NCBI GenBank assembly: GCA_036339975.1
Contig: JAYYZV010000005.1
Location: forward strand, 2,099-66,098
Direction: 5' to 3'
Source: Pseudomonadota bacterium
Lineage (GTDB): Bacteria; Pseudomonadota; Alphaproteobacteria; MPNO01; UBA830
Length of the DNA: 64,000 nucleotides
Part shown: positions 6,689 through 63,261 of the stretch, one piece after another
Layout: the number at the start of each line of letters is the position of its first letter
How positions within the stretch are numbered: the stretch's first letter is position 1
Program-made: the position numbers and the translations under genes
Notes under the pieces: generated by a model
Told to the model about the DNA's origin: nothing
What the model saw: the letters and a program-made list of their open reading frames with translations, nothing else
Database searches by the model: none

Positions 6689-6696
6689 ACTTTCTC

Positions 6697-15279: not shown

Positions 15280-15283
15280 GATT

Positions 15284-28458: not shown

Positions 28459-28806
28459 ATGACCGTCACCATCTATCATAATCCTCGATGTTCAAAATCG
28501 CGCGCAACGCTGTCTCTACTTCAGGAAAAAGGTATCTCGCCGGTGATCGTCGAATACCTTGAAACGCCGCCGTCCAGCACCGAACTGCGTGCAATTCTTG
28601 AAAGGCTTGGCATCGAGCCGCGCGATCTGATGCGGAGACAAGAAGAGCCCTATAAGATATTGAACCTTGCCGACAAGACACTGGATCGAGACACGCTTAT
28701 ACAGGCTATGATAGAAAATCCGATCTTGATAGAGCGCCCCGTGGTGTTGAATGGCGGGAAATGTGCCCTCGGCCGGCCACCGGAAAACGTGCTGAAGATC
28801 CTCTAG
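28459..28806 (+). CDS. arsC: ArsC-family (glutaredoxin-type) arsenate reductase-like protein
   Basis: 115 aa. IYHNPRCSKSR active-site Cys context and LIERPVV. Confidence 0.8.
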   Translation: MTVTIYHNPRCSKSRATLSLLQEKGISPVIVEYLETPPSSTELRAILERLGIEPRDLMRRQEEPYKILNLADKTLDRDTLIQAMIENPILIERPVVLNGGKCALGRPPENVLKIL

Positions 28807-28808
28807 TT

Positions 28809-29336: not shown

Positions 29337-29355
29337 ACGAGGGGAGGAATTGAAA

Positions 29356-40793: not shown

Positions 40794-41561
40794 TCAAACC
40801 TCAATCGGCGTACCCCCAAGCTGCGTGAGATAAGTCTTCAGTTCTTCTGTCGGCATGATGCCTGAAAACATCTCATTTCTCATGTGAAGGCGTTGCATCG
40901 AGACCTCTAACAGTGCTTTTTTTGATGCTTCGAAATCTGCATTGGTGTTGATTTTTCCTTTGAGATCAGCTGCTGCGTGGTCCACATGTCCGTCCTCGTC
41001 GTCGGCGATAACCTTGAACGCCGCTGCAAGCTTGGTCTCAAAAACGCCGCCCGTCAGCTTTGCTCCTTCGCGGAATGTGGCCGTCCCGCCGCCTTCGGTC
41101 AGCTCCATCGTAGCGCGTACCGCGGGATTCTCCGAATTCACGTAAACGTGGCGCAGTTTATTTAATTTATCGTCTTCAGGTAATTGGCCGACATCTCCGT
41201 GCCGTAGGGGACGACCAAGAAGACCTTCAAGTACTTCCGCCAACACGGTGTAGTGCATGAATTCCTCGGTCATCTGTTCCAGCCGGTGATGAAAACCGCG
41301 CCGATCCATACCGTCGTCGACCGAGTTGAATTGGTTTACCAGAGAGGTAAATTCCATATGAAGACCACACGCAAATCCATCGGTTGAACCGTAACCGATA
41401 ACCGGATTTAGTTCCTTGTAGACAGCTGCCTTAAGATAGTGGAGCCAGATGTCTTTCGATGGATTTGAAGCGAAGAACCTTCGCGTCAGCTCTGCTTCTG
41501 TTTCCCAGTAAGGCGTGGCTAAGTCGACTAGCTGCTGTGTATAAGGAGGATTGTCACTCAT
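40794..41561 (-). CDS. uncharacterised ferritin-like di-iron-carboxylate protein (putative oxidase/oxygenase)
   Basis: 255 aa. Ligand-like pattern E70, E100-FM-H103, E153/E156, E189-DG-H192 (E-x~30-ExxH twice). ATGA overlap with the upstream TauD gene, with GGAGG 9 nt upstream of the ATG. Confidence 0.5.
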   Translation of the reverse strand: MSDNPPYTQQLVDLATPYWETEAELTRRFFASNPSKDIWLHYLKAAVYKELNPVIGYGSTDGFACGLHMEFTSLVNQFNSVDDGMDRRGFHHRLEQMTEEFMHYTVLAEVLEGLLGRPLRHGDVGQLPEDDKLNKLRHVYVNSENPAVRATMELTEGGGTATFREGAKLTGGVFETKLAAAFKVIADDEDGHVDHAAADLKGKINTNADFEASKKALLEVSMQRLHMRNEMFSGIMPTEELKTYLTQLGGTPIEV

Positions 41562-42445
41562 ATTATGGGACCTCCTATACCTGACAGAGGCGCATCACCC
41601 GCCACAGTGGTGCGGTGGAGAAGGCGGCGCGAATTTACGAGGTCATAGGGCATAGCCTGGTGCATTACGCAGATATTATCGAACATCACCATGTCGCCAT
41701 CCTCCCATTCGTGACGATAAATAAACTGCGGCTGGGTGCAGAATTCTTCCAGTTCATCAATCAACCTGCGTGCACCCTTGTATGACATGCCTTCAATCCC
41801 TGCTGCATGCGACCCGATAAATAGTGCGCGACGTCCATTTGGACGTTCAGCGACTAACGGCTGCCGTGCGGGGGGGGTTTCTGCCTGCACCTCGGGTGGC
41901 CGCGGAGGTAAGCTGTGACGCCGTCGCGTTTCTTCAAAATCGTGGATTATTACCAAGGTCTCAAGGGCGCGTTTTCGCTCTTCGGATAGGGCATCGTATG
42001 CGAGAGTCGTATCCGCAAACATCGTGTCACCCCCTTCCTCGGGCATTTCTATCGCATAGAGAATTGAGGCTTTGGACGGCAGGATGCGAAATGACGAATC
42101 AATATGCCAAGACGACGTCCCTAGCGTAAAAGACTGGTGTCCGGGATCATCCACCGGTTTGATCGTATTTGTAGCGCGGTCGATGTTGGTAACTCGAAGA
42201 ACCGTCTTGTAACCTTCCGCCTGATCCTTGCGGTCGGGAAAGTTCTCCAGCGTACCGAACTTTTCACTAAACGCGACCTGCTGGGCGACAGTCCAGTATA
42301 GTTTGCGGAAGATCAGAAGCCGATGTGTGTTGAACGCATCGTGCACCGTCCTTACCACTTTCTCCGAAAGGGACCGTAAAGGTTCCATCCCATCAACCTC
42401 TGCCCCAATCCCACTGCTGCGCGGTGTAATGGTGATACTCGACAT
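41558..42445 (-). CDS. TauD/TfdA-family Fe(II)/2-oxoglutarate dioxygenase
   Basis: ATG 42445 (GAGG upstream) within ORF 41558-42478. WHIDSS (HxD), GGDTMFAD, FDNICVMHQA. Confidence 0.8.
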   Translation of the reverse strand: MSSITITPRSSGIGAEVDGMEPLRSLSEKVVRTVHDAFNTHRLLIFRKLYWTVAQQVAFSEKFGTLENFPDRKDQAEGYKTVLRVTNIDRATNTIKPVDDPGHQSFTLGTSSWHIDSSFRILPSKASILYAIEMPEEGGDTMFADTTLAYDALSEERKRALETLVIIHDFEETRRRHSLPPRPPEVQAETPPARQPLVAERPNGRRALFIGSHAAGIEGMSYKGARRLIDELEEFCTQPQFIYRHEWEDGDMVMFDNICVMHQAMPYDLVNSRRLLHRTTVAGDAPLSGIGGPII

Positions 42446-42575
42446 TTTTCTTACCTCGCTCCGTCGAAGATTAACCACCCCTTTGCGTATCTACAATGCG
42501 CATGGCGTTGTCTTGGCGTTCTGCCTGTGACAGTTTCAGGAACACAATTTTAGCCCGTGCAGAAGGACACCTTCC

Positions 42576-44618: not shown

Positions 44619-46241
44619 ATGAACGATCCCAAATCGCGCGGTTACAAAGACATGCAAGATCATATGTGGGCGCTTGATGCCGCTGGTCTGCTGACGACGA
44701 TTGATGCACCGATCAATAAAGACACCGAACTTAGTCCCTTGGTTCGGTGGCAGTTTAGAGGTGGAATTCCAGAAGTTGAGCGAAAAGCGTTTCTTTTTAA
44801 GAATGTGATGGGAGCGGAAGGAAACCGATTCGATATCCCGGTCCTGACGGGCGCTCTGGCTGGAAACGCCGAGATCTATGCCATCGGTATGGGGGTTTCG
44901 GTAGACGATATCGGCGATTGCTGGGCCAATGCGATCGCAAACCCCATTGATCCGGTCGAATTTGCATCACCGCCGTGCCAAGAAGTTGTATTTGAAGGCG
45001 CCGGCCTAGTCTCGGGTAATGGTTTGGATGCGTTGCCCGTACCGGTATCCACACCCGGTTATGATTCCGCACCGTATCTTACCGCAACCGTCTGCGTCAC
45101 CAGTGATCCTGACAACGGTATTCAGAACCTCGGTACTTATCGCGGCGGGTTGAAGGCACCCGACCGGATCGGACTAAAAATGTTCATGAATCTGGGGCAA
45201 GGCGCCGCTGCGCACTGGGAAAAATATCGAGCCCGGGGTGAGGCTATGCCGATGGCAATAGTAGTCGGCTGCCCGCCGCCCATCGCGTATTGCGGTCCTC
45301 AGAAATTACCAGAGAATATTGACGAGATCGGCATAGCCGGCGGCATCGCCGGCGTGCCGATGCGCATAGCAAAGGCGCGCACCAGCGACCTGATGGTGCC
45401 TGCGGATGCCGAGATCGTAATTGAGGGACTGCTCGATCCAAATCATTTTGAGCCAGAGGGACCGTTTGGGGAAAGCCATGGTTATATAAATCTTGAGGAG
45501 TTTAATTTTATCTTGCAGGTGACCGCCATCACCCGGAAAAGAAATGCTGTTTTCACCTCTATCATCAGTCAGGTTACACCGTCTGAGTCTTCTGTGATCA
45601 AACGGGTTGCTTACGAACCCTTGTTCCTCAATCACCTGCGCGAACACCTCGGCATAAAAGCCGTAGTGCGCGTGTGTATGCATGAAGCCCTGACAAATTT
45701 ACGTAAAGTCGTTGTCGTTCAGTTCGCGCGCGGTACGGTCCGTACCGAAATTTGGCGCGCGCTATATGGTGCCATGTCGTTTCAGGCGGCGGTCGGAAAA
45801 TATATAATTGCTGTTGACGAGGATATCGATCCGCGAAATCTCGATGCCGTATTTTGGGCGATGAGCTACCGGGCCAACCTTGCGGATGACTGCGAGGTTA
45901 TCCATCATAGGCCACGGGGGCATGGACCAAAAACAGGCGCGACTGAGGATGCGACGCTTGCTATAGACGCCACGCTGAAAGCGGATATGGCACCTGTGGC
46001 GCTTCCCAAGCGCGAATACATGGAAAATGCACGAGAAATCTGGGATCGGCTTGGCCTGCCGCCGTTAAAGCCAGAAGCGCCCTGGCACGGCTATGAGTTG
46101 GGTGACTGGTCCGCGGAATGGGATCGGCTAGCCGAACGCGCTGCGGCTGGGGACTGGATCGCCAATGGTGAACGCTCTAATCAAAAGCGCCGTGCCGGGG
46201 TTAAGCCCAACACCGACGTGCGCAAGGTTGATAAGGATTAA
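44619..46241 (+). CDS. UbiD-family (prFMN-dependent) decarboxylase, paralog 2
   Basis: 540 aa, collinear with 3183-4850. PINKDTELSPLVRWQFRGG, QNLGTYR, VVGCPP, EGPFGESHG. Confidence 0.85.
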   Translation: MNDPKSRGYKDMQDHMWALDAAGLLTTIDAPINKDTELSPLVRWQFRGGIPEVERKAFLFKNVMGAEGNRFDIPVLTGALAGNAEIYAIGMGVSVDDIGDCWANAIANPIDPVEFASPPCQEVVFEGAGLVSGNGLDALPVPVSTPGYDSAPYLTATVCVTSDPDNGIQNLGTYRGGLKAPDRIGLKMFMNLGQGAAAHWEKYRARGEAMPMAIVVGCPPPIAYCGPQKLPENIDEIGIAGGIAGVPMRIAKARTSDLMVPADAEIVIEGLLDPNHFEPEGPFGESHGYINLEEFNFILQVTAITRKRNAVFTSIISQVTPSESSVIKRVAYEPLFLNHLREHLGIKAVVRVCMHEALTNLRKVVVVQFARGTVRTEIWRALYGAMSFQAAVGKYIIAVDEDIDPRNLDAVFWAMSYRANLADDCEVIHHRPRGHGPKTGATEDATLAIDATLKADMAPVALPKREYMENAREIWDRLGLPPLKPEAPWHGYELGDWSAEWDRLAERAAAGDWIANGERSNQKRRAGVKPNTDVRKVDKD

Positions 46242-46339
46242 GGGGGCTTTGGTTCGTTCGCTATTCCCGCGAAGGAGAATGTCTCGTTCTATTCCGTTCG
46301 TTTACCGGAGGCCCTCGCCTGCGCGGGGATGATGGACGG

Positions 46340-47215
46340 TTGAAATTATCCTTTGCAAAGCCTCCCCCAATAGTTGCCGGCCCCGCTTGGATGGTCCTTG
46401 CCGGGACCGGGTATACGCTGGCATCCGTTTGTACCCGCGAATTGTCGTCGGATTATTCAACCGCACAGCTTGCGTTCATGCGGGCAGTGATAGCCATGGC
46501 ATTCATCATGCCCATGATCGCCCGAAACGGCATTCACGTGATGAAAACCACTGTTTTCCCGATCCATGCGATACGGGGGTGTCTTACCTACGGTGGGATG
46601 ATGTGCTGGTTTTATGCTGTCAGCGTGATCCCGATCTCCGATTACACAGCGCTACTGTATATCCAGCCGGTCTTCACTATCCTTCTCGCGGTGCTTATCC
46701 TTGGCGAAAACGCCGGACCGCGAACCTGGGGCGCGATCGCTGTAGCCTTTGCAGGCGCACTGATCATCTTGCGGCCGGGCTTTCAGGAAATAAACCTCGG
46801 TATGATGGCCGCGTTGGCGACCGGCATTTTGTTCGCCGGGGTCAATACTTGTATGAAAACACTTTCGAAAACAGACTCGGCCGCTGTGATGGTTGCCTAT
46901 GTCAGTATCCTAATGCTTATTTTTTCCTCAATCCCTGCTTGGCTCTATTGGACAGATCTCAGCTTGCAGGACATTCCCACCATTATAGGCGTGGGGGTAT
47001 TCGCGCTTCTTGGTCAGTATTCCATCACCCGAGCGATTGCGGTTGCGGAGGCGCGCGTCGTACAGCCTTTCGACTTTTCCAGACTAATTACGGCCGCCAT
47101 CATTGGTTGGATCGTGTTCGGTGAAAGTTCGGATCTATATACTTGGGCTGGAGCGCTGGTTATTTTTTGCGCGAGTTACTACGTAATCGTCTTCGAGCGG
47201 AGGGATCAGCACTAA
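46340..47215 (+). CDS. EamA/DMT-family transporter
   Basis: 291 aa, about 10 TM segments, TTG start. ALIILRPGF and PFDFSRL..GWIVFGE motifs. Confidence 0.8.
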   Translation: MKLSFAKPPPIVAGPAWMVLAGTGYTLASVCTRELSSDYSTAQLAFMRAVIAMAFIMPMIARNGIHVMKTTVFPIHAIRGCLTYGGMMCWFYAVSVIPISDYTALLYIQPVFTILLAVLILGENAGPRTWGAIAVAFAGALIILRPGFQEINLGMMAALATGILFAGVNTCMKTLSKTDSAAVMVAYVSILMLIFSSIPAWLYWTDLSLQDIPTIIGVGVFALLGQYSITRAIAVAEARVVQPFDFSRLITAAIIGWIVFGESSDLYTWAGALVIFCASYYVIVFERRDQH

Positions 47216-47417
47216 TCGCGCACCACATCACCACCATCGTTTCGGCAGACGGTAGCCGTAAAGAATCCGTGCTTGACGCCCGGCGGGTAACGTCCGCGGG
47301 CGGCGACGGAATTGTGCCTGCGATTGAAAATGTATTAGCTGTCTTTAGGCCGAAGACATGGGGTTTTGGCGGTTGTTCACTGTCTGAAGAGGCCGGTATG
47401 GAGGTCGTGGAAATGAT

Positions 47418-48122
47418 ATGATAACGCAATACACATGGCCTACGCCGAACGGGCATAAGGTATCGATCCTAATTGCGGAGCTTGGCCTTGAGAGCGAAAT
47501 TGTCGCTGTCGATATCAATATTGGTGAACAGTTTAATCCAGCGTTCCTCGAAATAAGTCCGAACAACCGGATTCCGGCGATTATCGATCACAAGCCTGTC
47601 GACCGGGGTGGCCCGGTATCCGTGTTCGAGACTGGCGCAATTCTGTTGTATCTTGCCGAAAAAGAGGGGCGATTACTTCCGCAACCGAGTGAAATCCGAG
47701 CGTATAAGTCGGTGATAGAGTGGCTGATGTGGCAGATGGGCGGACTTGGTCCGATGGCGGGCCAGGCACACCATTTTAGACAGGCGATGGGTGGCGTCGA
47801 CGTGCCGTATGGTGTAGAGCGTTATTCTAATGAAGTCCGCCGTCTGTATGATGTAATGAACAGACGTCTTTCGGAAACCGAGTGGCTGGCTGGCGACGAA
47901 TATTCAGTTGCCGATATTGCCTGCTGGCCTTGGGCTCGCCCGTCCCGGCGACAGGGAGTTGATAAGGCTGACTTTCCCCATGTGAAACGTTGGTTTGATG
48001 TTATGGCTGCTCGTCCTGGCGTACAAAAGGGAATGGAGCTTTTGAGCGACAGGCGTGGATCGAGAGAGTTGACCGATAGATCACGTGAACTTTTGTTCGG
48101 CATGGGCCAGTTGGAGCGATAA
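47418..48122 (+). CDS. glutathione S-transferase (YfcG/YghU Nu-class-like)
   Basis: 234 aa. TPNGHKVSILIAELGL, NPNNRIPAI-like block, VFETGAILLYLAEK. GGAGG upstream. Confidence 0.85.
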   Translation: MITQYTWPTPNGHKVSILIAELGLESEIVAVDINIGEQFNPAFLEISPNNRIPAIIDHKPVDRGGPVSVFETGAILLYLAEKEGRLLPQPSEIRAYKSVIEWLMWQMGGLGPMAGQAHHFRQAMGGVDVPYGVERYSNEVRRLYDVMNRRLSETEWLAGDEYSVADIACWPWARPSRRQGVDKADFPHVKRWFDVMAARPGVQKGMELLSDRRGSRELTDRSRELLFGMGQLER

Positions 48123-48363
48123 TTATGGTTGATAAATGGATCAACTGCCCCCACTGCGCCAAAATGGAATACAATTTCCCGACGGTTGCCTGCGCAGCGG
48201 CTGAGAAAATTGAATCCTCTCCCATCACTCCCCCAATTTTCTTAAGACCAATCAACACGTGGAGACTGTTTAGATAGCAGTTGGAACTTAAAAATGGCGG
48301 GTTACCGAGGGCGGACGCGGTGTTATTTCCTTTAGTTATTTCCGAATCCAGTTGAGGGGGCGT

Positions 48364-49269
48364 TCAGTGCACCCCAGGTGCCTCGCCACGACGGGCTTCT
48401 TCGCGAACGCTGTAGTAATTAGCGGCGAAGATGACTAAGCCACCGACCGCTGTCCAAGGATTGATGGCCTCAGCGTAAATCAAATATCCGAGAAGTGCCA
48501 TTAATGGCAACCGCAGAAAATCCAGTGGAAAAATGATTGTGATATCAGCGAGTTTCAATGCCCGTGCCATGGTGTAATGCGCTGCCAGTCCGGACAGCCC
48601 CCACGCTAGAATCCAGGGGATATCAATCAATGTGGGTGTCACCCAATCGAAAATGAAGACTGCAGGAATAAGACCCAGCGGTAGCTGCATCGCGTTCATA
48701 TAAAATATAATGCCTTGTGGTGACTCAGTGCGTGTTAAGTATTTAACCAAAACCCCGGATCCGGCATAAAGAAACGATCCCAGAAGCATCACGAAGCCCG
48801 CGACGCTGAAGGCGGACCCTTCCGGTTGCAAGATGATCAATGCTCCGGAGAAGCCTAGTATCGTAGCAATCCATTTATGCCGCCACATGGTTTCACCCAA
48901 GAACATGACGGCGAGAATGGCGGTAAAAAGTGGGACGGAGAATTCGATGGCCGTCAGGTCCGATAAAGTCAGATGTACAATCCCGTACATCCAGCATAGC
49001 TGCGCCGAAAACTGAATTAGCGCACGGAAGCCGTGGAATCTGAGGTTGGTCGTGTGCAGATCGCGAAAACGTTCACGCATGACAAAGGGCAGCACAGCTA
49101 TGACGCCGATAAGGGACCTGAAGAACAGAATCTCGAAAGTCGACATGGTGGTGTGTAATTCGCGTGCTGAAAGGGCCATTCCGGCGAAGCCCGCCATGGT
49201 GCCGCAGAACCAGAGGACAGCTTGAAAAAGTGGCGGCACTACCGAGGTATCCCGCGGGTTTCCCGCCAT
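48364..49269 (-). CDS. EamA/DMT-family transporter (array member 5, distal)
   Basis: ORF 48364-49350. ATG 49269 suggested (10 residues before TM1), which overlaps the upstream gene by 31 nt. ALIILQPEG, PLDFLRLPL..YAE. Confidence 0.75.
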   Translation of the reverse strand: MAGNPRDTSVVPPLFQAVLWFCGTMAGFAGMALSARELHTTMSTFEILFFRSLIGVIAVLPFVMRERFRDLHTTNLRFHGFRALIQFSAQLCWMYGIVHLTLSDLTAIEFSVPLFTAILAVMFLGETMWRHKWIATILGFSGALIILQPEGSAFSVAGFVMLLGSFLYAGSGVLVKYLTRTESPQGIIFYMNAMQLPLGLIPAVFIFDWVTPTLIDIPWILAWGLSGLAAHYTMARALKLADITIIFPLDFLRLPLMALLGYLIYAEAINPWTAVGGLVIFAANYYSVREEARRGEAPGVH

Positions 49270-50135
49270 ACCGAGTAGTAGTTGCCACCGAAAATCAGGA
49301 TCGCTCCCCCCAGCACCCAAATACTCACGCCTTCGGAATAGATCAACCAACCGATCAATGCGGCCAACGGCAGCCGCACAAAATCAACCGGGATGCAGAC
49401 GGTGGCGTCTGCGAGTTGGAAGGCGCGGGCAAGGCAGAAATGTGCTGACATTCCAGTCAATCCAATAGCCAGTAACCAAGGGGTATCAGCCCACATCGGC
49501 CATACCCATTCGAACCAGAATACCGCCGGCAGAAAAGCCAGCGGCAGCTGAATGATTTGCATCCAAAAAACGATGACCCAGGGTGCATCATCGCTGGTCA
49601 GTGATTTCATCATTACATTTGAGATGCCGTAGCATAGTGCACCCAGTAGTACTACTAGTGCACCTTGGGTGACGATCTCGAACCCCGGGCGCAGGATGAC
49701 TAGGACGCCCGCCATACCCATCGCGACGGCGATCAACCTGTGCGATTTTGCTCTTTCTCCCAGAAAAAGCATGGCGATGATGGCAGTCCACATGGGCATA
49801 GTGAATTCTAATGCGGTCACATGTGCCATCGGCAGTAAGGTAATACCGATCACCCAGCACCACTGACCGCCGAAATGAACCACATTTCGGCCAAGCTGCA
49901 TACCGAACCGGCGAGTTTTGACTTTGTGGAAACCGAGGCGCCACGCCACTAGGCCCATGATGGGAATTCCGATGATCGATCGGAAGGACAGTAGCTCGAA
50001 GCTCGACAGGTTAGTCGACAGTTCGCGTACGGAGACCATCATCAGAATGAACGATGCCGCTGTCCCGAGCACCCAGAATGCGGCAAGCACAGCGTTCTGG
50101 GCCGGTTGAGATGTCTGCGCGGCGGGGTCTGCCAT
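49239..50135 (-). CDS. EamA/DMT-family transporter (array member 4)
   Basis: ATG 50135 within ORF 49239-50252. VLVILRPGF, PVDFVRLPL..YSE. Confidence 0.8.
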   Translation of the reverse strand: MADPAAQTSQPAQNAVLAAFWVLGTAASFILMMVSVRELSTNLSSFELLSFRSIIGIPIMGLVAWRLGFHKVKTRRFGMQLGRNVVHFGGQWCWVIGITLLPMAHVTALEFTMPMWTAIIAMLFLGERAKSHRLIAVAMGMAGVLVILRPGFEIVTQGALVVLLGALCYGISNVMMKSLTSDDAPWVIVFWMQIIQLPLAFLPAVFWFEWVWPMWADTPWLLAIGLTGMSAHFCLARAFQLADATVCIPVDFVRLPLAALIGWLIYSEGVSIWVLGGAILIFGGNYYSVWRETRGIPR

Positions 50136-50158
50136 TGGTTGGTACCCGTTTAAAGAGA

Positions 50159-51073
50159 TCAGTCGGTCGTCGTCGAACTTGACCTGACGGTTCGCGTTTC
50201 CTTGCGGACAATATACATTGTCGACACAAAGATAACCGCCCCACCGACCCATGCCCAGACCACCGGTGCTTCCCCGAAAAAGAGGAAGGCACCCAGCGTC
50301 ACCCAGGGCAGCTTGGTAAAATCGACGATAATAATCAGGCTAGCATCCGCCAACGCCAATGCTCGGGCTAACATCCAGTGGGCAAGAGTCGCCGTTGCCG
50401 CAAGACCGATTAGCCACGGCGCGTCGGTCATTTGAGGCATCGAGATACCGCCCATAGCCCATGCGGCGGCGAGCGCCAGCGGCAAATGTATAACATTCAT
50501 ATAGAAAACAATCGTGTCGCTGGTACCGTCCCGCATCAATACCTTTGTTACGATATTTGCACCCGCGTATCCGACTGCGGAGACGATAGCTGAAATTGCG
50601 GCGATGGTGACCGGTTCTAACCCTGGCCGCAGGATGATCAGGACGCCGGCAAAGCCTATGAAAGTTGCTATCCATCGCACCGTGTCCACCCGTTCCCCTA
50701 GAAACACAATGGCGAGAAGAATGGTGAATAATGGCACCGTAAACTGCAACGACATGCCAACCGATAGATTCATCTGCGATATTGCGTAAAACCAGCCGGC
50801 AACACCAATGAAATGCATGAGATTACGGAGCAGATGCCACCTAAACATTCTGGTACGAAACAGCCCACTACCTGTCCGTCCGAAAACGGGCACCAGAAGG
50901 ACTAACCCGATCAGGGCCCGCCAAAATGCTAGCTCCCCCGTGTTATACCTATCGGCTAGGTGCCGCACGATCATGACCATAGACATGAAAGCGACAGTTG
51001 ATAACGCTATCCAGATAAAACCCCGAAGATTCGGTGAAAGCTTGGTGAGCCGTTGCCGGAAACTGCCGATCAC
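50159..51073 (-). CDS. EamA/DMT-family transporter (array member 3)
   Basis: 304 aa. VLIILRPGL, IVDFTKLPW..FGE. 4-nt overlap with the upstream member. Confidence 0.8.
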   Translation of the reverse strand: MIGSFRQRLTKLSPNLRGFIWIALSTVAFMSMVMIVRHLADRYNTGELAFWRALIGLVLLVPVFGRTGSGLFRTRMFRWHLLRNLMHFIGVAGWFYAISQMNLSVGMSLQFTVPLFTILLAIVFLGERVDTVRWIATFIGFAGVLIILRPGLEPVTIAAISAIVSAVGYAGANIVTKVLMRDGTSDTIVFYMNVIHLPLALAAAWAMGGISMPQMTDAPWLIGLAATATLAHWMLARALALADASLIIIVDFTKLPWVTLGAFLFFGEAPVVWAWVGGAVIFVSTMYIVRKETRTVRSSSTTTD

Positions 51074-51993
51074 GCGTTACCCTTTGCCGCGTTATCCTGC
51101 CGTTGTTTCTCCAACCGGCTTTCCCGCGCCGTGATATACCAAGTGCAGATGAAAATAAGGCCTCCGCCAACCCATACCCATATAGTTGGCACTTCGCCGA
51201 ATAGTGCGAAGGCGAAACCGGAGGTGATTGGAAGGCGAAGGAAGTCGGTCGGCCCGATGATGCTGGCGTCTGCCAGTTTAAGAGCGCTCGTGTACATTAG
51301 GGGTGCCAGAGTACCTGTTACGCCGATGAAAAGAATAGGTAGAATGTCGTCTACCGTCGGAGGCACCCATAGCCATAAAGTCAGTGGTACGCTGAGAAGA
51401 AGAATGAAAAAATTGGTGTAGAACGTCAGCGCCAGCGGCGTTTCGGTCTTAACCATGAATTTCAGAAAAATAACAGTCCCGGCATAGAGTGCCGCTGAGC
51501 CAAGGATCATCAGCTCTGCTAATCCTACGTCTAAATTGCCAGGTTGCAGTATGACCAGAGTTCCGCAGAAGCCGACGACGGTTGCGGCCGTTCGACGAAT
51601 ACCTACACGTTCGCCAAGGAAGATGACGGCGAGCAGGATCAGGAAAAGCGGCAACGTGAAATGGATTGCGACGGCTTTTCCCAGTGGCACCACGCCGATG
51701 GCGTAAAACCACATAATCATCCCCGCAAAATTAACTACTGCCCGTATCGCGTGCATGCCTAGTCGTTGTGTTTTCAGTAGGTGGACGCCTTTCCAGGCGA
51801 AGTAGGGCATCAGGATCATCATGCTGACCAACATTCGCCAAAAAACAATCTCCGGCGATGCCATTGTGTCGGTTAGATATCTCACGCACGTATGTGTCGA
51901 CGAGAAAAGAAACATCGAAAGTACTGCGATTATAACGCCGGTGATGACGTTCGATGATGCTGGATTAAGGGAGGTGCTGTCGGGGGAAGTCAT
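51070..51993 (-). CDS. EamA/DMT-family transporter (array member 2)
   Basis: 307 aa. TLVILQPGN, PTDFLRLPI..FGE. Confidence 0.8.
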   Translation of the reverse strand: MTSPDSTSLNPASSNVITGVIIAVLSMFLFSSTHTCVRYLTDTMASPEIVFWRMLVSMMILMPYFAWKGVHLLKTQRLGMHAIRAVVNFAGMIMWFYAIGVVPLGKAVAIHFTLPLFLILLAVIFLGERVGIRRTAATVVGFCGTLVILQPGNLDVGLAELMILGSAALYAGTVIFLKFMVKTETPLALTFYTNFFILLLSVPLTLWLWVPPTVDDILPILFIGVTGTLAPLMYTSALKLADASIIGPTDFLRLPITSGFAFALFGEVPTIWVWVGGGLIFICTWYITARESRLEKQRQDNAAKGNA

Positions 51994-52028
51994 CTCCTTA
52001 AAGTAGAGTATTTTGTGCGTATGAGGAA

Positions 52029-52925
52029 TTACGCAGCTTTATCGGCTTCGCGCCGCGCTATAAAGTAGGTGCTAACGAATATGATGGCAGCGCCGAGCCA
52101 TACAAATTCGTCTGGCACTTCGCCAAACAGGGCAAATCCGAAAAGAGCTGTAAAGGGCAGGCGCATAAAATCGTATGCTGCGATCAAACTTGCTTCCGCC
52201 TTTCGAAGGGCGATTGCAACAAGGAAGGGCGCGAACAGGCCGCATACGCCAAGGCCCATAACCGGCAGAATGTCTGCGTTCGTCAAAGGTGCCCAAAGGA
52301 TTATAGTCGGGACCAGACAGCCTATCGCCATGAACAGATTAGTATAAAATGTCACCGCCGCAGGGGTTTCGCTCTCCACCACCTTTTTTAGAAAAACCAC
52401 GGCGCCGCCGTACAAGGCCGCCGATCCCAATATGGCAAGTTCCGGCAGACCGGTTTCGATCATGCCGGGGCGGAGAATAACCAATACACCGCTAAATCCC
52501 GCCAACATTGCGGAGACCCTCCACAGACCAATACGTTCTTTCAGGAAGATTGCGGCCAGTAGCACAATGAAAAGCGGCATGGTGAAATGAATTGCGATAC
52601 CCTTGGCTAATTCTATATGTCCCAGGGCCCAGAACCACAAAACCATCCCCACGAAATTGAAGGTCGATCGGATCACGTGAACTTGTATTTGTCGTGATTT
52701 CAGCTTGTGGACGCCGGACCAAATGAAATAAAGCCCGATTCCGACCACGCCTAACAAAGCGCGTATGAATACAATCTGCCATGACGACATCGTATCAGAT
52801 AGAAGCCGCACCGACGGCGGTACGACGCTGAACAACAACATCGCGACGGTTGAGATGATTGTTGCCTGAATGACGGGGCTCAGCGCACCGAAGCCCGATT
52901 GGCTAGAAGGTATGAACATTGTCAT
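52029..52925 (-). CDS. EamA/DMT-family transporter (array member 1, promoter-proximal)
   Basis: 298 aa. VLVILRPGM, AYDFMRLPF..FGE. Confidence 0.8.
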   Translation of the reverse strand: MTMFIPSSQSGFGALSPVIQATIISTVAMLLFSVVPPSVRLLSDTMSSWQIVFIRALLGVVGIGLYFIWSGVHKLKSRQIQVHVIRSTFNFVGMVLWFWALGHIELAKGIAIHFTMPLFIVLLAAIFLKERIGLWRVSAMLAGFSGVLVILRPGMIETGLPELAILGSAALYGGAVVFLKKVVESETPAAVTFYTNLFMAIGCLVPTIILWAPLTNADILPVMGLGVCGLFAPFLVAIALRKAEASLIAAYDFMRLPFTALFGFALFGEVPDEFVWLGAAIIFVSTYFIARREADKAA

Positions 52926-52964
52926 GAATTGAAAGTAACGAATTTAGAAAGCACTTTGGCGCCC

Positions 52965-53579
52965 TTATACGACCGACACCGCTCCTGCAGTTTTTTCGAG
53001 GTATAGCTGGAGATTTACGGCCTGTTCACTGCTGTTGACCAACGCCGCGACAATACGGCTGAGATGGCGGAAATCGTCAGCACTGAGAGAGCTGAATTCG
53101 ACGTCGTTTACCTGCCGCTGATAGGGTGCTAACTCGGCGAGTTTGTCGCTGCCGGTTTGGGTTACCGTCAGCACGGTGCGCCGTCGGTCAAGCGCATCTG
53201 TCGTTTTTTCGATCAGCCCGCGGCCCTGAAGTTTTCGCGTCACGTTGGTCACAAAACCAGTGCTTACATGCAGATGATCTGCGAGGGCTTTAACGTTGAC
53301 ATTGCCGGCCCGACTCAGCCGGGCGACTGAGATAAGAATTGTATATTCAATACCGGCCAGACCAATTCGTCGAGCATGACCATCGCGAATGGCGGCATGG
53401 CGCGCGTTAAATGCAAAAATATCGTGCACCAGTTGGCGGAACATCTGGTCGGAACCGTTAGCTAGTAGTTCCTCGCGCGATACAGTTAGTGGCGTAGTCG
53501 GCATCTGACTTAATAGGGCTTTTTTCGCCGCTGTTTTGCCGGATTTTGTAGTTTCGACGGTGCCTAATTCTTCCGACAT
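52965..53579 (-). CDS. MarR-family transcriptional regulator
   Basis: 204 aa. Winged-HTH core LAGIEYTILISVARL..VKALADHLHVSTGFVTNVTRKLQGRGLIEKTTDALDRRRTVLTVTQTG. Confidence 0.8.
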   Translation of the reverse strand: MSEELGTVETTKSGKTAAKKALLSQMPTTPLTVSREELLANGSDQMFRQLVHDIFAFNARHAAIRDGHARRIGLAGIEYTILISVARLSRAGNVNVKALADHLHVSTGFVTNVTRKLQGRGLIEKTTDALDRRRTVLTVTQTGSDKLAELAPYQRQVNDVEFSSLSADDFRHLSRIVAALVNSSEQAVNLQLYLEKTAGAVSVV

Positions 53580-53616
53580 GCTATCTGAATCACCATTTTC
53601 TGAGAGATAAAGAGCG

Positions 53617-53646
53617 TTGACATTCTATTGTATTCTAAAATAGTAT
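53617..53646 (+). promoter_or_regulatory. candidate sigma70-type promoter for the HpaB-family gene, embedded in ATTCT/GTATTCT repeats (possible MarR operator)
   Basis: TTGACA 53617-53622, 18-nt spacer, TAGTAT 53641-53646. GTATTCT at 53630 and 53643. ATTCT at 53622, 53632, 53645 and 53661. Confidence 0.3.
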
Positions 53647-53685
53647 TCTTTGTATATTAAATTCTGCTAAATGGAGAAATTGGTT

Positions 53686-55176
53686 ATGGCGAAAACAGGC
53701 GCCCAGCATTTGGAATCCCTGCAGGACGGCCGTGAGGTGTTTATAAACGGTAAGAAAGTCGACGATGTCACTACGCACCCTGCTTACAGAAATGCTGTCT
53801 CGGCTGCGGCGCGCCTGTATGATTTTCAGGCAGACCCCGAAAATATAGAGTGGATGACATTCGAAAGCCCGACCTCTGGTGAACGGGTTAATCGCTGCTG
53901 GCAGCTGACAACATCGTATGAGGAGTTGGTGGCTCGTCGTCGCGCTATCGAGGGCTGGTCCCGACTTTCCGGTGGCTGGCTTGGCCGCTCTCCCGACCAT
54001 ATAGCGTCTTCGATGGTCGGTCAGGTGATGGGTTTGCCGGTATTCGAAAACCATTCAATTGAGCGAGCCGGTGCGCTGAAGGATTATTTCCAGTTTGTCC
54101 GCGACACTGATGCATATATGACCTACGTCATCATCAATCCGCAGGCTGATCGAAACAAAAGCACTGGTGAACAGCAGGATGAGTACTTTGCGACAGGAGT
54201 GGTAGATGAAGACTCTGAAGGCATCACGGTACGCGGCGCCAAGATGTTGGGCACCGGTTCCATTATGGCAAACGAGGTCTTGTTCGCGAATATCCAACCT
54301 TTGAAACCGGGAGAAGAAAAATACGCGATTTCCTTCGCTATTCCGATGAATACAAAGGGCTTAAAAATCATGTCCCGCCGATCGTATGAGGAATCGGCAT
54401 CAAGTATATACGACTATCCCCTTTCTTCTCGGTTCGACGAAAATGACGCGCTTGTCTATTGTGACGACGTGAAGGTGCCGTGGGAGCGGGTCTTTATCTA
54501 TAAGGATACCGATACTGCTCGCGCTCAGTTTCAGGACACTTACGCGCATTACATGCAGAACTACCAGGCGATGATCCGTCTGATGGTGAAAATGCAGTTT
54601 CAGGTCGGTGTAGCGCGCAGAATCACCGAAACCATTGGTACAGTCGGTATGCCGCCCGTTGCCGAAAAACTTGGCCATCTGGCGGCGCAAGCGGCTATGG
54701 TCGAAGGCTTGGTTTATGGCATGGAATCCGGCGGTGGAATGTATAACGGCTACTACGTCCCGGACCGCAATCTGATGTACACGGCGCAGGTGCTGACCCA
54801 GCAGCTGTATCCGGAGTTCGTTACCTCGATGCGTGAGCTGGCCGGTGGTGGCCTGATCATGTTGCCGTCATCCGCCGAAGATTTTGCTAATCCGGAGCTG
54901 GCAAAATATATAGGGGCGACCCAGAAATCAGCGATCGGATCTTCGGAGGAAAAGGTCAAGTTTATGAAACTCGCCTGGGATTCTATCGGATCCGAATTCG
55001 CTAGCCGGCATACCCAATATGAAATGTTCTATGCCGGGGCACAGTTCGTGACCCGCAATCACGCGCTTCGTACCTACGACTGGGATCGGTCAGCGGACCT
55101 AGTCGACTCTATCCTCGATAGTTACAAGCTGGAGGATGCGATCAGTGAAGGCGATGCTAAAATCGCGGCGGAGTAA
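53686..55176 (+). CDS. 4-hydroxyphenylacetate-3-monooxygenase (HpaB) family flavin-dependent oxygenase component
   Basis: ATG 53686 (GGAGA upstream) in ORF 53671-55176. HLESLQDGREVFINGKKVDDVTTHPAYRN, GWLGRSPDH, ITVRGAKMLGTGS. Confidence 0.85.
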   Translation: MAKTGAQHLESLQDGREVFINGKKVDDVTTHPAYRNAVSAAARLYDFQADPENIEWMTFESPTSGERVNRCWQLTTSYEELVARRRAIEGWSRLSGGWLGRSPDHIASSMVGQVMGLPVFENHSIERAGALKDYFQFVRDTDAYMTYVIINPQADRNKSTGEQQDEYFATGVVDEDSEGITVRGAKMLGTGSIMANEVLFANIQPLKPGEEKYAISFAIPMNTKGLKIMSRRSYEESASSIYDYPLSSRFDENDALVYCDDVKVPWERVFIYKDTDTARAQFQDTYAHYMQNYQAMIRLMVKMQFQVGVARRITETIGTVGMPPVAEKLGHLAAQAAMVEGLVYGMESGGGMYNGYYVPDRNLMYTAQVLTQQLYPEFVTSMRELAGGGLIMLPSSAEDFANPELAKYIGATQKSAIGSSEEKVKFMKLAWDSIGSEFASRHTQYEMFYAGAQFVTRNHALRTYDWDRSADLVDSILDSYKLEDAISEGDAKIAAE

Positions 55177-55571: not shown

Positions 55572-57221
55572 ATGACCAAACAAAATATCTATGACTACAT
55601 CGTTGTAGGCGCCGGATCGGCAGGTTGTACGTTGGCTGGGAGGCTAACCGAAGACCCGGATGTCCGCGTCCTTCTACTAGAGGCGGGTGGATGGGACCGA
55701 GACCCATGGATACATATTCCACTTGGGTGGGGGCGCATATTGCAGCGGCGTTTGCACGACTGGATGTATTTCGCTGAGCCCTCAGCCACTATGGATAATC
55801 GTCGCATCGAATGCGCCCGAGGAAAGGTGATCGGTGGTTCCTCTTCAATAAACGCGATGGCGTATTATCACGGCCACCCCTCCGACTATGACCGATGGGC
55901 GGCATTAGGTCTAAACGGATGGTCTTACTCAGAGGTGCTGCCTTATTTCCGCCGTTCCGAGGATTGGGAGGGGGGTTCTGACCACTGGCGTGGCGTCGGT
56001 GGGCCGCTGACGGTAAGCAAAACGACCTTCCAGGACCCTTTGTGCGAGGCATTTCTGTCGGCGGCACATGATGCTCAGCACCCTTTCACGGATGACTATA
56101 ATGGCAAAAAACCTGATGGTTTTGCTCGTATGCAGGCGACACTTCGGAACGGTCGTCGTTGGAGTGCCGCCGCCGCATATCTGCGGCCAGCGCTTAAGCG
56201 CCCGAACCTGACCGTTAAGACCAATGCCCTCGTGCGAAGGCTTGAGATGGACGGTAACGCCGCGAGGGGTATTGCCTATAACCTCGCCGGTCGGTTGGTC
56301 TCGTCGCGCGCAACGCGCGAAGTGATACTCTGCGGTGGGACGATCAATTCGCCGCATCTATTAATGTTGTCCGGTATTGGCGATCCAAACCATCTCCGGG
56401 AGCATGGGATTGATGTCGTTGTGCCGCTGAGTGGGGTCGGGCAGAACCTCGCCGATCACACCTCATCAGCCTTTATATTTCGCCGCAACGACGGCAGTCC
56501 GTTTCAGCGAAACATGCGTTTTGACCGTGTGGTGGCATCCTTGATCCGTGCGTATCTCGGGAAGGGAGGCTTTGCCGCTGATCTGCCCTTCGGGATTACT
56601 GCGTTTCTGAAAACAACACCCGATGCGCCAGCGCCCGATATCCAGATGCTGTTCTGGATGGGTGCGACGAATACCGCCTCGCCTTGGTTGCCACCCTTCA
56701 AAAAGGCCTTTGAGGATTCGTTTTCTGTGCGGATCATGCCAATGCATCCGACTAGTCGAGGTCACATAGCCCTCGCTTCATCTGACCCAGAGGATGCCGT
56801 TCTGATACACCAGAATTTCCTCAGTACGGAAGCAGAGTGGGACACAATGCGGCGCGGCCTCAGGATGGCGCGGGAACTCGTTGCGTCACATCGCATAAAG
56901 GCCTTCGGTGGGGAGGAAATCGCCCCTGGTGCCAAGAAGCAGTCGGACGCGGAGATAGACGCCCATATTCGAGCTACGATGGGGACAGTGCATCATCCTG
57001 TCGGAACCTGCAAAATGGGTACAGCCGAAGATCCGTTGGCAGTGGTCGACGCGGAGCTGCGTGTTAGGGGCGTTAATGGACTACGCGTCGTTGACGCTTC
57101 TGTGATGCCTGATTTGATCGGCGGAGCTACAAACGCGCCTGTTATTATGATGGCGGAGAAAGCGTCCGACATGATACTTGGAAAAGATCCACTTCCATCT
57201 GCCGGTGTATCAATATGTTAA
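55572..57221 (+). CDS. GMC-family FAD oxidoreductase (choline/alcohol-dehydrogenase-like)
   Basis: 549 aa. YDYIVVGAGSAGCTLAGRLTED, GKVIGGSSSINAM, HPVGTCKMG, DASVMP. Confidence 0.9.
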   Translation: MTKQNIYDYIVVGAGSAGCTLAGRLTEDPDVRVLLLEAGGWDRDPWIHIPLGWGRILQRRLHDWMYFAEPSATMDNRRIECARGKVIGGSSSINAMAYYHGHPSDYDRWAALGLNGWSYSEVLPYFRRSEDWEGGSDHWRGVGGPLTVSKTTFQDPLCEAFLSAAHDAQHPFTDDYNGKKPDGFARMQATLRNGRRWSAAAAYLRPALKRPNLTVKTNALVRRLEMDGNAARGIAYNLAGRLVSSRATREVILCGGTINSPHLLMLSGIGDPNHLREHGIDVVVPLSGVGQNLADHTSSAFIFRRNDGSPFQRNMRFDRVVASLIRAYLGKGGFAADLPFGITAFLKTTPDAPAPDIQMLFWMGATNTASPWLPPFKKAFEDSFSVRIMPMHPTSRGHIALASSDPEDAVLIHQNFLSTEAEWDTMRRGLRMARELVASHRIKAFGGEEIAPGAKKQSDAEIDAHIRATMGTVHHPVGTCKMGTAEDPLAVVDAELRVRGVNGLRVVDASVMPDLIGGATNAPVIMMAEKASDMILGKDPLPSAGVSIC

Positions 57222-57390: not shown

Positions 57391-58971
57391 CTACAAACCG
57401 GAATAGGTCGTTTTCCATAGAACAGCCAATGCCTGCCGGTCGATTTTGCCACGCTCATTTTTCGGGATGTCGTCCAAAATGATGAGTTGCGACGGCATCT
57501 TGAAATGCGCTAACGCATTGGCGCAGTGGGCGAGAATCCTTTCGTCAGTTGCGCTCGTATTGCGGCGTAGTGCCGCGAAGCTTACGGGGCGTTCACCGTA
57601 GACTTTGTCATAAACGCCGATGGTGGCAGCTTCTAGTACATCCGGGTGAGTGCTAAGCGCGTTGTCGATTTCGAGAGGGGCGATGTTGACCCCGCCCCGA
57701 ATAATGACGTCCTTAGCCCGGCCAGTAATCATCAAGAAGCCTTCCTCGTCAATATAACCTATATCTCCCGTTTTCAAGCGGCCGATTTTCTCGATGGAGC
57801 CGTCGGCATGCAAGTACCCTCCGGCCGGTTGCGCGCCGCCGAGTTCTATCTCGCCTACCTCACCCGGTTCGAGCGTGTTCCCATCCGGACCAACGATCCG
57901 AAGGTTCTGGTAAAGCCCGGATGGACCTACGCTTCCGATACGGCGTTTCCCGACGTGGTTACTTGCAACGATCCCGCCTTCGCTCATCCCGTATAGTTGT
58001 ACAAGTTCGATGCCGTATTTTTCTTCAAAACGTTTGTGCTGTTCCACCATTAACGGCGCGGTGGATGAGGACATGAAGCGCAGCTGACGCGTTGCTGCCA
58101 CATCTTCAGGGGTCGGCTCATGTTCCAATAGCATGTTGATGACAGTAGGCACGCCGATCACCATCGTCGGTGAAAAGAAACGTAACCAGTCGAAGAAGCG
58201 GGAACGCGAAAAACGGTTAGCCAGAAGAATCGTCGCACCCACTCGAAGGGCTGGTGTAAGACAAAGCATGTGAGACGACGCCCAGCTAAGAGATCGAAAC
58301 TCTAGCATGCGATCAGTTTCGGTTAGTTTCCACATGTCGAGGGTTTGATCTGCGATCCAGAAATAATTGCCAAAACGGTGCATTACTCCTTTCGGTGCGG
58401 CGGAGGTTCCCGAAGTAAAGCTGAGCACACAAAGGTCCTCCGGCCCGGCCCCGGCATCCGGAGCTTTGTGGCCGTCGTCATATCCATTCAAAATTTCGAA
58501 AAGGCCCCCATCCTGAGCGTTGTTGCCGTCTGGAGCGCAGTCGCCGAATGCGATCCAATCGCAGTCAACAACGTGATTGAGGCCGCGAATATCGAGGTCC
58601 TCATGAGACAGGACGAGCGCGGGTTCGATGCGCGCAAGCATTTCACGCATGTTGGTGGCATTGACCTCGATATTGATCGTGCAGAATGCCGCCCCGTAGC
58701 GGAGGATTGCGAAATACAGGACAGGCATTTCCAAACGGTTATCTGTCAACACTGCGATACGCCCCCCTGCGCCGATACCGCGTGCCGCGAGGAACCGCGA
58801 AAGTCGGTTCGACAGCTTCCACATTTGGGTAAAAGAGATCGCGCGGCCATCCTGGTCGAGCGCCACGATGAATGGCTTATCGCCACGGGCCTCCGCGTGA
58901 TTTTGGAGCAACGCAGCGACGGACTGGTAACGACCTTTATCTGGGGCGGAAGGGACGGAACGGGTTAGCAT
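57391..58971 (-). CDS. AMP-dependent synthetase/ligase (acyl- or aryl-CoA ligase)
   Basis: 526 aa. AMP-binding motif FTSGTSAAPKGV, YGMSEGG, TGDIGYIDEEGF, ERGKIDR. Confidence 0.85.
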   Translation of the reverse strand: MLTRSVPSAPDKGRYQSVAALLQNHAEARGDKPFIVALDQDGRAISFTQMWKLSNRLSRFLAARGIGAGGRIAVLTDNRLEMPVLYFAILRYGAAFCTINIEVNATNMREMLARIEPALVLSHEDLDIRGLNHVVDCDWIAFGDCAPDGNNAQDGGLFEILNGYDDGHKAPDAGAGPEDLCVLSFTSGTSAAPKGVMHRFGNYFWIADQTLDMWKLTETDRMLEFRSLSWASSHMLCLTPALRVGATILLANRFSRSRFFDWLRFFSPTMVIGVPTVINMLLEHEPTPEDVAATRQLRFMSSSTAPLMVEQHKRFEEKYGIELVQLYGMSEGGIVASNHVGKRRIGSVGPSGLYQNLRIVGPDGNTLEPGEVGEIELGGAQPAGGYLHADGSIEKIGRLKTGDIGYIDEEGFLMITGRAKDVIIRGGVNIAPLEIDNALSTHPDVLEAATIGVYDKVYGERPVSFAALRRNTSATDERILAHCANALAHFKMPSQLIILDDIPKNERGKIDRQALAVLWKTTYSGL

Positions 58972-63247: not shown

Positions 63248-63261
63248 CTTTTGTTCACTTC

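Follow-up and report, generated by a model that had tools for sequence, protein, structure and literature searches.

What are five full-length genes for EamA-domain permeases from the superfamily of drug/metabolite transporters (DMT) doing in tandem behind a single MarR-family regulator gene? The question is raised by a stretch of 64,000 nucleotides (nt) from an alphaproteobacterium of the UBA830 lineage (assembly GCA_036339975.1, contig JAYYZV010000005.1, positions 2,099 to 66,098; hereafter the window). DMT/EamA proteins are very numerous, are among the least characterised of bacterial transporters, and are normally studied as single genes. An initial annotation, made from the letters of the window alone, had read the array as either a battery of transporters with graded specificities for neighbouring aromatic and organosulfonate pathways, or a set of obligate hetero-oligomers. 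Our preferred answer, which we regard as somewhat probable, is that the five genes encode co-expressed, individually functional permeases with diverged substrate pockets, which stand under the control of MarR together with an HpaB-type hydroxylase and are linked to a unit consisting of a ubiD gene, a sixth permease gene and a glutathione transferase (GST) gene. Below, E1-E7 denote the seven EamA paralogs of the window, while L001 and onwards denote numbered relative loci.

Families were assigned to the open reading frames of the window by a Pfam domain search, and junctions were both read from the sequence and computed. The regulator and permease genes are as follows (lengths in amino acids, aa):

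52965-53579, minus strand: MarR-family regulator, 204 aa, lead gene of the putative unit (PF01047/PF12802)
52029-52925, minus strand: E1, EamA/DMT permease, 298 aa (PF00892 twice, E 6.9e-30)
51070-51993, minus strand: E2, EamA/DMT permease, 307 aa (PF00892 twice, E 1.3e-34)
50159-51073, minus strand: E3, EamA/DMT permease, 304 aa, GTG start (PF00892 twice, E 9.3e-27)
49239-50135, minus strand: E4, EamA/DMT permease, 298 aa (PF00892 twice, E 9.2e-29)
48364-49239, minus strand: E5, EamA/DMT permease, 291 aa from GTG 49239 (PF00892 twice)
46340-47215, plus strand: E6, EamA/DMT permease, 291 aa, between ubiD and the GST gene (PF00892 twice, E 6.9e-30)
18007-18969, plus strand: E7, EamA paralog (PF00892 twice, E 9.1e-35)

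This inventory upholds much of the initial annotation, in that five full-length EamA genes do follow the MarR gene on the minus strand after a 39-nt gap, E6 is parted from the array solely by the GST gene (47418-48122), E7 is an EamA protein, and both of the subfamily signatures proposed are present in all seven proteins. Each of E1-E7 has two stretches matched by PF00892 (E about 1e-27 to 1e-35), with scores of 94-120 bits against a cut-off of 28.2. Continuing downstream from E1, the junctions are a 35-nt gap, a 4-nt overlap between E2 and E3 (GTGA), a 23-nt gap between E3 and E4, and an overlap between E4 and E5 that depends on where E5 begins. The first three were described correctly from the outset; the fourth had been given as a 31-nt overlap, which is obtained if E5 starts at ATG 49269 (301 aa), whereas a start at GTG 49239 gives an overlap of 1 nt (TAGTG). 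Since orthologous E5 genes have, as their sole or common start, one that overlaps the stop of E4 by 1 or 4 nt (L002, L006, L033, L016, L005, L017, L041, L029), we place the start of E5 at GTG 49239 rather than at ATG 49269. Proteins of the 66-kb contig that holds the window carry no functional names in NCBI, and the identical protein found on an NCBI record for E4 is likewise unnamed.

Is each of these proteins a complete transporter? Sequence searches of the PDB gave almost nothing: phmmer found no match to E2 among PDB sequences at E<=0.01, and a 12-sequence E5 profile matched LicB alone (E 0.0014). Membership of the fold was therefore tested by means of an AlphaFold2 model and Foldseek, using E5 as the sole member modelled. 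The model, built on a 60-sequence alignment, comprises ten long helices (pLDDT 84.6, pTM 0.82, the program's local and global confidence scores), and Foldseek matches it with probability 1.00 to YddG (5I20; TM-score 0.79-0.80) and LicB (7PAF; TM-score 0.81-0.85), at sequence identities of only ~14-16%. The model and the domain matches point to each E gene encoding a complete two-domain DMT transporter of ten transmembrane helices (10-TM), these ten being modelled for E5. Each 10-TM DMT protomer contains a complete transport path. Curated NCBIfam models are approached by none of the proteins, with scores of 42-62 against 230.2 bits for TIGR00950 (2A78), 25.4 against 300 for YddG (NF050091) and 25.4 against 130 for RarD (TIGR00688), and because all scores lie below the cut-offs no subfamily name can be assigned. 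The labels “riboflavin transporter” and “S-adenosylmethionine uptake transporter” carried by some relatives were rejected as automatic annotations only. Rfam yielded no match at the gathering threshold in the whole window, nor at E<=1 in positions 46000-54000; in the resulting absence of a flavin mononucleotide (FMN) riboswitch we also set aside the RibN-type riboflavin importer label borne by a relative at 90% identity, and with it riboswitch control of the locus.

The copies are strongly diverged. Pairwise identity among E1-E7 is 28-50%, the closest pairs being E1/E2 (50%) and E4/E5 (44%), and the most distant paralog E7 (28-32% to E1-E6). In bootstrapped neighbour-joining (NJ) trees, every copy from the array loci described below falls into one of seven orthogroups with 99-100% bootstrap. 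The E1 group (100%) is sister to E2 (98%), E4 and E5 likewise form sister groups (99%), the E3 group, which includes the distant copies L029b and L030a, has 100%, and the E6 group has 100%, or 99% with the “far” copies from L027 and L029 included. The distinctness and support of the orthogroups imply that all duplications predate the clade, and that smaller arrays are a product of loss. On these sequence comparisons we regard E1-E5 as old, diverged paralogs and not as recent duplicates, in agreement with what had been supposed at first.

Divergence has not been accompanied by decay. Relative to the orthologs in L001-L003, nonsynonymous divergence (dN) is 0.06-0.12 for every E gene and synonymous divergence (dS) is saturated (at least 1.2), with dN/dS at ~0.03-0.08 (0.06-0.07 for E2, 0.03-0.05 for E4), and the MarR, GST, UbiD and HpaB genes lie in the same range. 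No frameshifts or premature stops occur in the E copies, and judging from the substitution rates all array copies appear to be under strong purifying selection. Eighteen residues are invariant across E1-E6, including R26, R41, R72, W83, E116, K166, D240 and E257 (E5 numbering), and E7 retains 16 of them; given the universality of these residues, none of the copies is degenerate. There are also 18 positions that are fixed to different residues in each orthogroup, the polar ones of which lie in TM3, 4, 6, 8 and 9: N/H/Q/T at 76, H/Q/E/L at 99, E/A/G/M at 148, P/H/Q at 221 and S/T/R at 234. In the YddG structure, TM3, TM4, TM6, TM8 and TM9 line the central cavity. The orthogroup-specific polar positions, which may lie there too, are only suggestive of diverged substrate specificity.

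Does the array recur elsewhere, or is it peculiar to this genome? When one genome per species was scanned with E2, at least 20 loci came up, and a metagenome scan with an E5 alignment returned ten further close loci of unchanged layout; together with three more distant lineages, to which we return below, the array is present in at least 33 related loci. All 20 genome loci come from metagenome-assembled genomes (MAGs) of marine Alphaproteobacteria or “Rhodospirillaceae” (e.g. UBA830, UBA7314), their E2 orthologs being 59-85% identical, and a relative of E5 at 90% comes from MarineAlpha11_Bin1. The conserved cluster consists of a divergent HpaB-like gene, MarR, the EamA array, a convergent GST gene, E6, UbiD and then a Zn-dehydrogenase. 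The array itself takes the forms E1-E2-E3-E4-E5, E2-E3-E4-E5, E2-E4-E5, E1-E2-E4-E5, E1-E2-E5 and E3-E4-E5, and its size ranges from three to five through loss of E1, E3 or E4. E1 is missing in L001, L004-L006, L008, L012, L013 and L016, E2 occurs without E3 in L005, L008, L012, L013 and L016-L020, E5 without E4 in L019, L020 and L026, and E3 without E1/E2 in L030, while E5 is found in every array seen and is the most widely retained member. The 4-nt overlap of E2 and E3 is kept in each locus that has both genes, and an overlap of 1 or 4 nt between E4 and E5 in nearly all loci. That order and junction geometry recur across relatives argues that the array is not a chance product. The phylogeny and synteny check proposed with the initial annotation has thus been run, and shows orthogroups with the same order and junctions in related marine loci; of the possibility raised there that such an array might prove common and already have a function, the first part is borne out within the clade, but no function has been assigned.

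A single transcript is plausible in this genome, because the junctions are too tight for internal promoters and promoter-like sites are clustered solely ahead of marR, and translational coupling would fit the conservation of the E2/E3 and E4/E5 overlaps in nearly all loci. The claim of a five-gene operon nonetheless requires qualification, since in seven relatives (L004, L007, L009-L011, L014, L040) an opposite-strand UbiD-family gene lies between E3 and E4, leaving E(1)-E2-E3 and E4-E5 as two units, and therefore the array is not always one operon. The splitting gene is ~25-27% identical to the UbiD gene of the window and so represents a second, distinct decarboxylase; in L009 it occupies 11873-13273 on the minus strand (466 aa, Pfam-confirmed), divergent to E4-E5. 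EamA and UbiD-like genes also adjoin in the distant loci L046 and L082.

How old is the arrangement? Examination of the contigs of E5 homologs at 47-60% identity revealed the three more distant array lineages, with four tandem EamA genes in L029, three in L030/L031 and three in L027/L028. In NJ trees, genes a-b-c-d of L029 group with (E1/E2), E3, E4 and E5 in that order, a-b-c of L030 with E3, E4 and E5, and a-b-c of L027 with E4, E5 and E5, while separate nearby EamA genes of L027 and L029 group with E6; bootstrap values for these distant placements are 81-100%, with 74% for the widest E5 group. The same four-gene order, together with GST, is present in L041 (61% to E5). As the distant members fall collinear, it follows that the four-gene order is old and that E1/E2 represents a later duplication. 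Among relatives at <=53% identity, ~65 of 70 loci consist of a single gene, and so do L021 (beside gyrB/dnaN/dnaA) and L023 (beside COQ7/DsbB), in keeping with the earlier statement that DMT genes are usually solitary, and the array would seem to have originated within a marine lineage.

The surroundings of the array differ across this deeper sample. The distant arrays (L027-L031) are without MarR and HpaB, such that the description of the array as MarR-headed applies to the subclade of the window but not beyond it. In these distant arrays, a small same-strand PNPOx_N gene (split-barrel flavin-binding) directly follows the last EamA gene (L027:7495-7962, L029:10897-11361, L030:5288-5776, L031:5248-5712); none follows E5 in the window, where ten scanned open reading frames gave a single PNPOx_N match at 4804-5367. 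An E5-type gene is convergent with a YfcG-like GST gene in the distant non-array relatives L048 (1195-4408), L055 and L064, with L048 also possessing a gene of E6 type on the strand of its GST gene, and L055 and L064, which are shorter contigs, the E5-GST pair only; these loci suggest that the array grew out of an older core of DMT-GST-DMT layout. In L017 (5889-9010), L018 and L020, where MarR and HpaB are absent, the array directly follows a same-strand AMP-dependent ligase gene orthologous to that at 57391-58971 of the window, and a UbiD-like gene is located still further upstream in L017. To judge from gene order, the GMC-HpaB-MarR segment of the window's subclade thus looks to have been inserted between ligase and array.

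If MarR control was acquired within that subclade, what might it consist of? The features concerned lie at the head of the array:

53580-53670, no strand: marR/hpaB-like intergenic region of 91 nt, with promoter-like hexamers on both strands
53641-53656, no strand: candidate MarR operator, a 16-bp pseudo-palindrome TATACAAAGAATACTA overlapping the -10 element of the hpaB-like promoter
53671-55176, plus strand: HpaB-type flavin-dependent phenol hydroxylase, oxygenase component (PF11794+PF03241)

The regulator's domain is clear (42 bits for PF01047, cut-off 24.6; 35.9 bits for PF12802, cut-off 27), yet its similarity to solved MarR proteins is weak and generic (best E 4.5e-07, to 3BPV), and among these no close match to any characterised MarR subfamily was found. 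Orthologs at 55-85% identity hold the same position in L001-L014, L016, L033, L036-L038 and L040. The protein bears an N-terminal extension of ~70 residues before the winged-helix domain, the end of which is poorly conserved, with alignments in many relatives beginning at residues 27-30. MarR-family regulators bind a (pseudo)palindrome of 16-20 bp in their own promoter region, from which a small ligand releases them. Promoter-like sites cluster solely in the MarR-HpaB intergenic region, upstream of marR, on the plus strand as TTGACA(53617)-16/18 nt-AATAGT/TAGTAT, with TTGACA as putative -35 element for the hpaB-like gene, and on the minus strand as TTAATA-17-TAGAAT and TATACA-18-TACAAT; this clustering is weak evidence, because scans of the window for intrinsic terminators and promoters were at chance overall (11 observed where 9.2 were expected, and 8 where 7.2 were). 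The spacer between marR and hpaB is kept at 85-97 nt in 15 loci, and 13 aligned loci including the window share, without variation, the AT-rich block TA.TATAC.AA..ATA.TA.TT, with GTCAA, likewise invariant, after it. In the L004-L014 group the block comes close to a perfect palindrome, and in L009 it matches on both strands. In the whole window the operator-like motif occurs once, between marR and hpaB, and on that account a wider MarR regulon including ubiD-E6-GST is unsupported. It is also absent in front of the split E4-E5 unit in L009, suggesting that in split-array genomes E4-E5 would escape the control of that operator. The candidate operator resembles the usual MarR operator of a divergent promoter region and may be bound by MarR, operators of this type having been described as 16-18 bp palindromes (PMC6391409).

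The enzymes that accompany the array provide the principal clue to its substrates, and two further genes are to be added to the hydroxylase and E6:

44619-46241, plus strand: UbiD-family (prenylated-FMN-type) decarboxylase, first gene of the ubiD-E6-GST unit (PF01977+PF20696)
47418-48122, plus strand: Nu-class YfcG-like glutathione transferase/disulfide reductase, convergent with E5 (GST_N, GST_C)

The HpaB-like protein is matched to E. coli HpaB (6B1B) at E 2.9e-87, chlorophenol and nitrophenol monooxygenases being more distant, and with orthologs 85-96% identical it is the most conserved gene of the cluster. Relative to L001-L003 it is 93-96% identical, against 75-90% for other cluster genes, and its dN is 0.02-0.04; no HpaC-type flavin reductase was seen beside it. 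The UbiD protein is a divergent family member (best PDB match E 2e-37), whereas the GST is close to YfcG (E 1.2e-70 to 5HFK/3GX0), and its gene is convergent to E5 in nearly all arrays. A module of three EamA genes, GST and UbiD is kept among unrelated flanks in L026. This locus (the L019 region; 2174-7661 and 14166-15323) derives from a complete-chromosome MAG and is flanked by defence- and mobile-element-type domains (AAA_15, DUF4435, GmrSD_N), which hints that the module is able to move as a unit. With a YfcG-like GST, a UbiD decarboxylase and an HpaB-type hydroxylase as the conserved partners, the link to organosulfonate pathways proposed in the initial annotation finds no specific support.

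In our preferred reading, E1-E5 would be five separately functional 10-TM DMT/EamA secondary permeases that arose by old duplications and later diverged in their substrate pockets. In this genome marR-E1-E2-E3-E4-E5 would form one message, translationally coupled at E2/E3 and E4/E5, and transcribed from a MarR-repressed promoter whose operator also serves the divergently oriented HpaB-type phenol hydroxylase gene; MarR would be released by a small aromatic or phenolic ligand, so that the five permeases and the hydroxylase are turned on at once. The locus, including ubiD-E6-GST, would then constitute a module for moving and transforming related phenolic or aromatic-acid metabolites, with the permeases acting as a broad-specificity battery. 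Such metabolites are the likely substrates, as we infer from the conserved partners UbiD, GST and HpaB-type hydroxylase, although these point to them loosely. As to direction, we marginally favour efflux, or exchange, of toxic substrates or products over high-affinity uptake; PecS/PecM offers a precedent of MarR-controlled DMT efflux of a phenolic aldehyde (PMC12288460).

Several points weigh against this interpretation. The direction of transport cannot be read from sequence, and the DMT superfamily includes importers such as RibN (PMC4418817) and LicB (7PAF); and the relatives are all uncultured MAGs. Guesses at substrates from the neighbourhood are weak, because the window as a whole is an island rich in oxygenases. 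MarR and HpaB are found with the array in one subclade only and the operator-like motif is absent before the split E4-E5, so that MarR control appears to have been added late and to be no intrinsic part of the array. Finally, the strict gene order and overlaps, maintained over deep divergence, exceed what a loose battery would need.

The best surviving alternative, which we consider unlikely, is that these are general metabolite-efflux or housekeeping permeases unlinked to the neighbouring enzymes, forming a “transporter island” held together by co-regulation, or by chance linkage within a catabolic island. The nearest out-group relatives (47-48% identity) are indeed single genes in housekeeping contexts (the gyrB/dnaN/dnaA and COQ7/DsbB loci mentioned above), the genes heading or following the array vary by lineage (MarR/HpaB, AMP-ligase, Metallophos, PNPOx), and no curated subfamily model is matched. 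Difficult to reconcile with this explanation, however, is the way in which the YfcG-like GST, and usually UbiD and E6 also, remain with the array through many rearrangements, the L026 module among them, as well as the retention of the E5-GST-E6 trio in L048.

A second alternative, to which we give somewhat less credence, is that E2+E3 and E4+E5, or a larger assembly, are hetero-oligomers of 10-TM subunits, in which case the array would specify one or two machines of several subunits. The order (E1/E2)-E3-E4-E5 has been kept through deep divergence, E4 comes before E5 in all but two arrays seen, and the near-universal overlaps (-4 for E2/E3, -1/-4 for E4/E5) are as expected of partners required in equal stoichiometry. 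Moreover, TM5 and TM10 have small residues that are universal (A125, G132, G266, I270), orthogroup-specific positions there are few, and in some DMT structures the dimer interface is made by helices of the TM5/TM10 type. Against this, each protein is apparently a complete two-domain transporter in its own right (10 TM modelled for E5), and the presumed partners are separable: E5 is conserved in three loci without E4, E2 persists without E3 in nine, and E3 is found without E1/E2 in L030. Heterodimers in the DMT superfamily are documented for the 4-TM small multidrug resistance (SMR) branch only (PMC9574504), and our literature searches on 10-TM DMT heteromers found nothing relevant. The obligate hetero-oligomers of the initial annotation are disfavoured, given that E1, E3 and E4 are each missing from otherwise intact arrays, lost independently of one another, and that the array is split in seven relatives. 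That the coupled pairs E2-E3 and E4-E5 represent the first heteromeric transporters built of full-length 10-TM DMT subunits is a shade less probable still; one possibility is that such heterodimers would gain new specificity or regulation from two pores or from the interface between them. Lastly, redundant duplicates kept for gene dosage, or copies in decay, might be suspected from the tandem arrangement and from array sizes that differ between genomes, but such an origin is highly improbable, with recent duplication, dosage and pseudogenes ruled out by the 28-50% identities, by a tree in which the duplications predate the clade, and by dN/dS values showing purifying selection on every copy, in the absence of frameshifts or premature stops and with orthogroup-specific residues fixed.

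Beyond the array, the window contains other genes that deserve brief mention. E7 stands in a plus-strand run with a TauE/SafE sulfite-exporter family gene (17051-17764), an alpha/beta hydrolase gene (18966-19829) with a 4-nt overlap between its start and the stop of E7, and a TauD-family dioxygenase gene (19864-20724); an E7 ortholog lies near the array in L020. Oxygenases of the wider window comprise three TauD, two PhyH, a Rieske, a luciferase-like and a GMC protein, and an acyl-CoA ligase is encoded there too. The oxygenase-rich island extends over 35540-63960 and, in order of position, includes a luciferase-like monooxygenase (35540-36886), a TauD-family gene (41558-42478), a GMC oxidoreductase (55572-57221), the AMP-dependent ligase (57391-58971), a Rieske ring-hydroxylating alpha subunit (59104-60447), two PhyH genes (61601-62416, 62438-63388) and another TauD-family gene (63262-63960). 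Elsewhere we noted a Vut_1 protein (putative vitamin/queuosine-precursor uptake) at 28761-29336, and a CoxS-like [2Fe-2S] subunit (32534-33001) between large open reading frames at 29350-31710 and 33032-35371.

The arrangement is more conserved than a single sequence could show, with four to five distinct paralogs in fixed order and with overlapping junctions, beside aromatic-compound enzymes, throughout one group of marine Alphaproteobacteria that are uncultured. The default explanation for it is unremarkable, and its function is one that we infer. If the permeases do form a battery of differing specificities, they would provide a natural panel of the pocket residues that set substrate choice in the DMT fold, and may indicate a class of dissolved organic compounds handled by these abundant marine bacteria; if, alternatively, the coupled pairs are heteromers, they would represent a new architecture for the DMT superfamily. 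The locus is in either case a defined target, consisting of five genes together with a single regulator and a candidate operator of 16 bp.

How, then, does the locus compare with known systems? Among the closest is PecS/PecM of Dickeya, Agrobacterium and Vibrio, in which, as here, a MarR-family regulator is linked to genes for DMT proteins of two EamA domains, a palindrome between divergent genes being the expected binding site of the regulator; 4-hydroxybenzaldehyde is the proposed substrate of PecM (PMC12288460). PecS/PecM, however, comprises a single divergent pump gene, whereas here one regulator heads five co-directional transporter genes, marR and E1-E5 lying in series on the same strand, and the divergent partner is instead an HpaB-type hydroxylase. 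The duplications reported in Vibrio are of whole pecS-pecM pairs and not tandem arrays of pumps (PMC6391409). The window's MarR protein shows only a weak and generic likeness to solved MarR proteins.

YddG/EamA/RhtA-type exporters and LicB are encoded by single genes. E5 resembles these 10-TM drug/metabolite exporters and the LicB choline importer in fold and size, but differs from YddG (5I20) and LicB (7PAF) in its very low identity to both and in NCBIfam scores far below the cut-offs. Paired SMR (PSMR) proteins and ArnE/ArnF are likewise adjacent paralogs with overlapping stop and start codons (PMC9574504), yet they are 4-TM subunits of ~110 aa, half or a quarter of the size and without a pore when alone, in contrast to E1-E5 with their 291-307 aa, two EamA domains and ability to survive the loss of a neighbour. 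HpaR-hpa and other MarR-controlled aromatic clusters share with the locus a marR gene divergent to an HpaB-family gene and a palindrome between the two; the window's match to the HpaR model (NCBIfam TIGR02337) is below threshold (30 against 121 bits), and the locus differs in that no hpa meta-cleavage genes or HpaC reductase are adjacent and the regulated operon would consist of transporters only. Tandem EamA-family genes are also known from plant clusters of EamA-like UMAMIT (usually multiple acids move in and out transporter) genes (PMC13512864, PMC13113050), although these are eukaryotic duplicates with separate promoters, form no bacterial operon and are unrelated in origin. The locus is consequently neither a PecS/PecM nor a paired-SMR system. 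No paper describing a bacterial tandem EamA array was found in our literature searches, in line with the initial statement that no characterised example is known. The parts are all of known kinds, namely permeases of the EamA/DMT type, a repressor of the MarR family and control from divergent promoters; what is undescribed in the literature searched is an old, collinear and apparently translationally coupled array of four to five distinct, full-length DMT paralogs that is shared across a bacterial clade.

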